A stretch of 64,000 nucleotides of DNA from Escherichia coli (GTDB taxonomy: Bacteria > Pseudomonadota > Gammaproteobacteria > Enterobacterales > Enterobacteriaceae). Position numbers and translations under genes: made by a program. Each line of letters starts with the position of its first letter. Position 1 is the first letter of the stretch. Under the pieces are notes generated by a model that was not told the origin of the DNA, ran no database searches, and worked only from the letters and a program-made list of their open reading frames with translations. This document shows positions 39,309 through 39,505 of this stretch, piece by piece. The stretch is taken from NCBI RefSeq assembly GCF_024502345.1, contig NZ_JALDNN010000001.1; one strand, written 5' to 3'.

Positions 39309-39505
39309 CGCCGGATGCGATGCGCACGGGTAAAACGTGCCATTAATGTCGGATGCGGCGTGAACGCCTTATCCGACCTACGTTCGGCACCCGTAGGCCG
39401 GATAAGATGCGCCAGCATCGCATCCGGCAATGCGCACAGGGTAACAAATGTGCCATTCATGTCAGATGCGGCGTGAACGCCTTATCTGACCTACGTTCGA
39501 CACCA
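39309..39505. repeat. BIME cluster (several REP units)
   Basis: Two near-identical copies of gtcggatgcggcgtgaacgccttatccgacctacgttcg plus gccggataag units. Confidence 0.8.

Follow-up and report, generated by a model that had tools for sequence, protein, structure and literature searches.

The window analysed here, a stretch of 64,000 nt of Escherichia coli DNA, carries the agmatinase gene speB (38387..39307, + strand) next to the metalloprotease gene loiP (39513..40271, - strand). Both are open reading frames, the former named speB in matching E. coli records and the latter corresponding to a 759-nt loiP in such records. The two genes converge: the speB stop codon, TAA, occupies 39305-39307 (+), the complement of the loiP stop codon occupies 39513-39515 (-), and the stop-to-stop gap between them spans 39308-39512, or 205 bp. 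The segment that varies between strains begins at the base directly following the speB stop codon, and a REP cluster fills the entire gap. An earlier note on this DNA had marked 39309-39505, which is essentially the whole speB-loiP gap, as a BIME of about 200 bp. This was borne out, as the gap consists of alternating REPs and linkers and its K-12 allele is a catalogued BIME-2. When annotated E. coli genomes were searched with a 521-nt query around the gap, the best identity was 99.4%, the median number of megablast places per genome was 13, and none of the complete E. coli genomes searched with this query was identical to the window allele. Two open reading frames of 53 and 55 codons (39315-39476 and 39353-39520) lie within the array and were set aside as mechanical by-products of the repeat sequence. 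The copy of the MG1655 record NC_000913.3 that was searched for a REP feature carries no repeat features over 49 kb, and a literature search on speB, loiP and REP returned no study specific to this locus. Upstream of speB, between speA and speB, lies a 243-codon open reading frame with a lipoprotein-like signal (...LLAGC) at 37520-38251 (+). Several E. coli strains have it, annotated as a hypothetical or membrane protein; K-12, in which 137 bp separate speA from speB, lacks it, and a Pfam search of its 243-aa product matched no family.

Three complete REPs lie in the gap, in the orientation order Y(-), Z(+), Y(-). They are preceded, on the speB side, by a leader (39308..39347) that can be read by comparison with the full 113-bp units: a truncated Z-type REP, of which only the 5' arm remains (39310-39325, 88% identical to 39397-39412), adjoins the speB stop codon and continues directly into a shortened long-linker copy (39326-39347). 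The remnant forms no significant hairpin of its own (z of -1.0 against shuffles). Judged from the alignment, the leader looks like a Z REP whose 3' arm was deleted between two ATGCGC repeats. The first Y-type REP (39348..39381, - strand) comprises an imperfect palindrome at 39348-39377 and CTAC at 39378-39381, which reads GTAG on the minus strand, and its DNA hairpin was calculated at -10 to -10.9 kcal/mol, with a z-score of about -4. A short 11-nt linker, GTTCGGCACCC (39382..39392), conserved in all units, separates the CTAC of this REP from the GTAG of the next. The central element is a long-loop REP of the Z2 class (39393..39428, + strand), inverted with respect to the Y REPs, with GTAG at 39393-39396 followed by a 32-nt imperfect palindrome (39397-39428). 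A long linker of 32 nt (39429..39460), which is locus specific and the most variable part of the unit, leads from the Z REP to the second Y-type REP (39461..39494, - strand; palindrome 39461-39490, CTAC 39491-39494), whose stem differs from that of the first by a compensatory change from G-C to A-T. The trailing segment (39495..39512) contains another copy of the short linker (39495-39504) and, after it, the last 8 nt before the loiP stop codon.

Each of the three palindromes (39348-39377, 39397-39428 and 39461-39490) is predicted to fold into two helices around a 2x2 internal loop, with hairpin z-scores of -3.0 to -4.5 against shuffles. All three thus show the features by which REPs are recognised, namely an imperfect palindrome with a 2-nt mismatch, a GTAG/CTAC foot, and an extragenic, repeated occurrence. 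The further gccggataag units listed in the earlier note could be identified as well; they are the 5' arm of the inverted REP at 39393-39428 and the half-REP at 39310-39325. In the window allele, positions 3 and 6 of the gap are G, where K-12 and O157:H7 have A. The segment 39310-39323 of the window allele is a perfect 14-nt complement of 39415-39428, the 3' arm of the Z REP, and the corresponding long-range stem is present in the minimum-energy RNA fold. Because K-12 and O157:H7 carry two mismatches in this complement, the long-range stem is given no weight here.

The periodicity of the array is evident from direct comparison of its two halves. A direct repeat of 66 nt (39333-39398 versus 39446-39511) has 88% identity and a start-to-start distance of 113 bp, and when small indels are allowed the repeat extends over 39320-39391 versus 39430-39504. 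Within it, a 45-nt core (39337-39381 versus 39450-39494) shows three differences. This accounts for the two copies of about 45 bp, differing at three to four positions, that had been described as tandem: the number of differences holds (3 in 45), but the copies are not in tandem, since they lie 113 bp apart and the Y copies are separated by the inverted REP and two linkers. The repeating unit is therefore the whole 113 bp, made up of a Z2 REP, the 32-nt linker, a Y REP and the 11-nt linker, and about 1.8 such periods are present in the window, that is, one complete unit following one with a truncated Z REP. Tandem Repeats Finder reported nothing in the window, because fewer than two copies are present and the first is truncated; run on the four-unit allele of another strain, it returned a period of 113, 3.5 copies and 95% matches. 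The pattern GATGCG-N8-14-CTTATCNGNCCTAC has six matches in the 64-kb window, three of them in this gap, and none in 100 shuffles.

The gap is a REP cluster of the BIME-2 type, a known element with a known polymorphism. BIME-2 elements are defined by Y and Z2 REPs in tandem, with locus-specific linkers and a number that varies between strains (Ton-Hoang 2012, PMC3333891), and the family goes back to Bachellier et al. 1994 and Espeli and Boccard 1997, as far as these are summarised in PMC3333891. In line with this, Y and Z2 REPs alternate in the gap, the units are tandem and vary in number between strains, and the short, locus-specific linkers carry neither an L motif nor an IHF site. Furthermore, the K-12 allele is listed as 'BIMEs2 3082469-3082615', a 146-bp interval between the convergent genes yggG>-<speB (Sutormin et al. 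2019, PMC6379681, Table DS3), and gyrase cleavage, another trait shared with the family, is on record for it. Nothing essential sets the gap apart from the family, from which it differs in that the first unit of its array is truncated. The central Z REP is built like a Z2, being 32 nt long with an inner stem of 5 bp and a loop of 4 nt, and its assignment rests on comparison with the Z2 hairpin of the naRNA4 model and with the canonical Z2 at 27250-27283 of the window, with which it shares 27 of 32 positions. Of the five that differ from canonical Z2, four make up two compensatory pairs, G-C and T-A standing where canonical Z2 has T-A and C-G. Two other REP clusters in the window are a BIME-2-like arrangement at 27221-27331, with a partial REP, the canonical Z2 just mentioned, a 14-nt linker and a Y REP, and a pair of Z1 and Y REPs at 16473-16550 separated by a 16-nt linker.

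Two other classes of REP element were weighed against this assignment. An IHF-binding BIME-1 (RIP/RIB element) that bends the DNA between speB and loiP would agree with the general statement of the earlier note that such clusters can bind IHF or gyrase, and a REP pair with an IHF site does exist in the window. This pair, at 55213-55310, is a textbook BIME-1, with a short Z1, a linker and an inverted Y REP, and an IHF-like site, ATTCAATATATTG, lies within it at 55252-55264 with one mismatch. The gap resembles it in being extragenic and in holding REPs of inverted orientation, but BIME-1 elements are single copy, have a short Z1 REP and contain an IHF site in a conserved L linker, none of which is true of the gap. 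The IHF consensus WATCAANNNNTTR, searched for with up to one mismatch, is absent from 39308-39512 and from all of 37895-42581. Moreover, the Z REP of the gap belongs to the 32-nt long-loop class and not to the short Z1 class found at 55213 and 16473, and the K-12 allele has been placed among the BIME-2 elements rather than among the 78 BIME-1 elements (PMC6379681). A BIME-1 identity is thus contradicted at the sequence level by the long-class Z REP, the missing IHF consensus and the presence of several units, and we give this reading almost no chance. Slightly less remote, and still very improbable, is that the gap gives rise to a nucleoid-associated RNA like naRNA4 (REP325), which condenses DNA together with HU. 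Most REPs are transcribed, and it is the hairpin structure, not the sequence, that counts (Qian et al. 2015, PMC4550694). Like REP325, the gap holds a tandem array of Y and Z2 hairpins with constant linkers between two genes; however, REP325 consists of six 77-bp Y-l-Z2 repeats with a 13-nt linker, while the gap has 1.8 repeats of 113 bp with a 32-nt linker. An Rfam search of the gap returned only sub-threshold matches to the naRNA4 family RF02564, at 53.6 bits (39396-39491, - strand) and 37.7 bits (39337-39378, - strand). The better of these falls below the gathering threshold of 59.5 bits and requires a 19-nt insertion in the linker, so the resemblance reflects the shared Y and Z2 hairpins and nothing more.

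The earlier note had proposed comparing copy number across strains, and this comparison was carried out on 5,426 complete E. coli genomes, of which 5,425 matched when the two flanks together served as the query. Between zero and four Y REPs were found in the gap. The shortest allele, 47 bp, retains one decayed Z remnant and no Y REP, and the 90-bp allele has one Y REP. Two Y REPs and one Z REP make up the 203/205-bp allele, found for example in K-12 and O157:H7; the 318-bp allele contains three Y and two Z REPs, and the 429-bp allele, found for example in ST131-type strains, contains four Y and three Z REPs. In representative loci, the array period between alleles is exactly 113 bp. Sixty genomes were then sampled at even steps through the ranking of the 5,425 two-flank matches. 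Among these, 37 had a gap of 203/205 bp, four of 47 bp, three of 90 bp and two of 429 bp, while the flanks were split in nine and the remaining five matched at speB only. The one speB-only record that was examined carries the 429-bp allele.

The long linker offers a second measure of copy number, as it belongs to this locus alone rather than being dispersed. It was found in 4029 of the 5426 genomes, at 5157 places in total, with a median of one place and a maximum of four. From this count, about three quarters of genomes carry at least two Y REPs. If the 1,128 surplus linker places belong mostly to three-linker alleles, we estimate that around one genome in ten has three or four units.

Split flanks were seen in 797 of 5425 genomes (14.7%). 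There, as in loci L006, L008 and L018, an island of 7.6 kb stands in place of the array, filling exactly the interval between the two stop codons and leaving no clear REP. The island contains dagR, genes for four PTS subunits (IIA-IID), dgaE and dagF, a set concerned with the use of D-glucosaminate, and a small palindrome containing CCGACCTAC is located at its loiP end. The 47-bp remnant and the single-REP 90-bp allele together account for about another 11% of genomes. Ahead of the loiP stop codon, the last letters of both the 47-bp allele of E. coli GPEC856 and the allele of E. whittamii read ...CCGGCGTAATAAAA(T/C)GC, and because of this shared end the array may once have terminated in a Z REP rather than a Y REP. 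Within E. coli, the gap is accordingly a clean length marker, with states of 47, 90, 205, 318 or 429 bp or the 7.6-kb island.

To place the array outside E. coli, the junction between linker and Y REP was searched for in one genome per species across 100,044 species. Only three hits in other species were obtained, and all of them lie between speB and loiP: in E. albertii (323-bp gap, three Y REPs), in E. whittamii (246-bp gap, two Y REPs) and in Escherichia sp. E1V33 (205-bp gap). Because all three hits are at the speB-loiP locus, the array is older than the separation of these species and has not spread to other sites. The Y REPs of the gap also carry a private variant, GTCGGAT...ATCCGAC, with a T-A pair at stem position 2 in place of the C-G pair of the canonical GCCGGAT...ATCCGGC seen in the other Y REPs of the window. 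All Y copies examined from E. coli, E. albertii and E1V33 show this variant; of the two copies in E. whittamii, one does. That the Y copies share a private stem variant points to local amplification of a founder unit, rather than repeated insertion, as their probable origin. Among 14 distinct units, the average column identity is 95%, the REP stems are 98% paired, and variation is centred on the middle of the long linker. With so little variation overall, only one stem pair (74/97) shows a two-sided change, and the covariation is weak evidence for selection on structure.

These features bear on how the array might change in length. Binding and cutting by the REP-associated transposase requires GTAG and the stem mismatch (Ton-Hoang 2012, PMC3333891), and all three REPs of the gap retain the GTAG foot, the stem mismatch and the CC|TAC cleavage context, the last of these likewise needed by the enzyme, as in REPtron (TnpA-REP/RAYT) systems. 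REPs of this GTAG type would be what the REP-associated tyrosine transposase of E. coli acts on. The gap differs from a REPtron in that no transposase gene adjoins the array, and the enzyme's role in copy-number change is a putative one. The array itself would gain and lose units in place as 113-bp units recombine unequally or slip against each other, and such exchange could yield the alleles with zero to four Y REPs.

Gyrase is the partner for which the gap has a measured record. Of the two proteins that the earlier note had suggested such clusters can bind, IHF finds no support, there being no consensus site in the gap and a Z2 rather than a Z1 REP, whereas gyrase is supported by two trusted cleavage sites mapped in the K-12 allele by Topo-Seq, at 3082526 and 3082596 (Sutormin 2019, PMC6379681). 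The numbers of cleavage sites reported for this allele are zero with ciprofloxacin, two with rifampicin plus ciprofloxacin, zero with microcin B17 and two with oxolinic acid (PMC6379681). The window allele differs from the K-12 allele at three positions, and the published 146-bp interval corresponds to the span from the first Y REP to the foot of the second. With the offset inferred from this correspondence, the two sites would fall at approximately 39437, in the long linker, and 39367, in the 3' arm of the first Y REP beside the stem mismatch; a location like the latter was reported as preferred by Sutormin et al. (PMC6379681). The array would thus act as a preferred gyrase site, as shown for the K-12 allele. 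Since cleavage was detected in only two of the four drug conditions, we regard the gap as a modest gyrase site, as measured on that allele. From its position between converging transcription units, we infer that the site may bring a benefit there. BIME-2 elements are strong gyrase sites that are independent of transcription, and their cleavage rises when transcription is blocked (PMC6379681), which weakens a simple link to transcription-driven positive supercoils.

Of the readings that assign the array a role in RNA or translation, an intrinsic terminator acting in both directions, on the speB and the loiP transcripts that converge here, would suit both its location between two stop codons and its stable, GC-rich hairpins in both orientations. 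These hairpins, however, lack T runs, and a promoter and terminator scan found neither kind of element within 39308-39512, nor any hairpin followed by a T run, so that the combination which defines a Rho-independent terminator, a GC-rich hairpin plus a T run, does not occur in the gap. Transcript-end mapping gives a similar picture. Term-seq lists no curated 3' end inside the array (Adams 2021, PMC7815308), although reads from repeats may have been filtered out. The same study reports Rho termination, antisense to loiP, in a region at MG1655 3082496(-) (Adams et al. 2021, PMC7815308, Supplementary file 2). Converted with the loiP stop codon as anchor, this region is equivalent to 39680..39696 (+ strand), or about 39688, some 175 nt past the array on the speB strand. 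RNA polymerase on this strand thus continues through the REPs, and it is hardly credible that the array acts as an intrinsic terminator. The read-through extends about 175 nt into loiP in the antisense direction, and such convergent transcription could affect loiP expression. The preferred reading is that the hairpins would not terminate transcription, the speB-strand transcripts being ended by Rho downstream, and that they would then probably serve as barriers to 3' exonucleases. Stabilisation of the upstream mRNA, which the earlier note had raised, is plausible at this gap as the classical role of REP hairpins, which block 3' exonucleases after downstream termination, and is left unsupported by the lack of a Term-seq 3' end within the array. 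Similarly, there is little to recommend the idea that a REP lowers synthesis of SpeB or LoiP by stalling terminating ribosomes, as reported for REPs less than 16 nt after a stop codon (Liang et al. 2015, as quoted in PMC12306157). It is true that REP-related sequence begins 3 nt after the speB stop codon, and that this remnant can pair with the Z REP through the long-range stem described above. The remnant forms no significant local hairpin, however; its long-range partner competes with the Z REP's own arm, and the complement is interrupted by two mismatches in K-12 and O157:H7. The first full REP hairpin is 40 nt from the speB stop codon and, on the other side, 22 nt separate the loiP stop codon from the closest REP stem, both distances being beyond the 15-nt limit as that distance is quoted in PMC12306157, and on this measure neither gene is followed by a translation-regulating REP.

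A much more serious alternative is that the array is a selfish or neutral repeat, seeded by the transposase and drifting in copy number, with gyrase cleavage and hairpins as by-products of its sequence. Although it falls somewhat short of an even chance in our judgement, this view accommodates a good part of the strain comparison: the 7.6-kb island replaces the gap in about 15% of genomes, the array is cut to the 47-bp remnant or one REP in about another 11%, the flanking genes are unchanged across zero to four copies, and gyrase cleavage is weak. At least a fifth of E. coli genomes have no intact REP at this gap, so the array is dispensable, which argues against an important local function. 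Against neutrality stand the retention of the array at one site from before the divergence of E. coli, E. albertii and E. whittamii and the 98% pairing of the stems across units while the linker centre varies, yet neutral persistence through homogenisation between units would be compatible with both. Far less likely, and put forward as speculation, is a scheme in which the number of 113-bp units sets gyrase capture or RNA 3'-end protection between speAB and loiP, the alleles of different lineages tune polyamine synthesis or LoiP, and the stop-to-stop exchange for the island reflects REP-targeted recombination.

Collectively, these findings make us confident that the gap is best explained as a whole by a BIME-2 element that has undergone local amplification, offers a gyrase site and is read through by RNA polymerase. 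REP clusters, BIME-2 elements, gyrase cleavage and copy-number variation between strains have been described since the 1990s, and with the K-12 allele already catalogued the discovery value of this locus is small; its practical value is small but real. If unit number is not neutral, examples of the alleles to be compared are those with four Y REPs (ST131-type strains), with two (K-12 and O157:H7) and with none (strains carrying the D-glucosaminate island). The alleles of this gap would thus provide a natural series for asking whether gyrase capture or the stability of mRNA 3' ends depends on the dosage of BIME-2.
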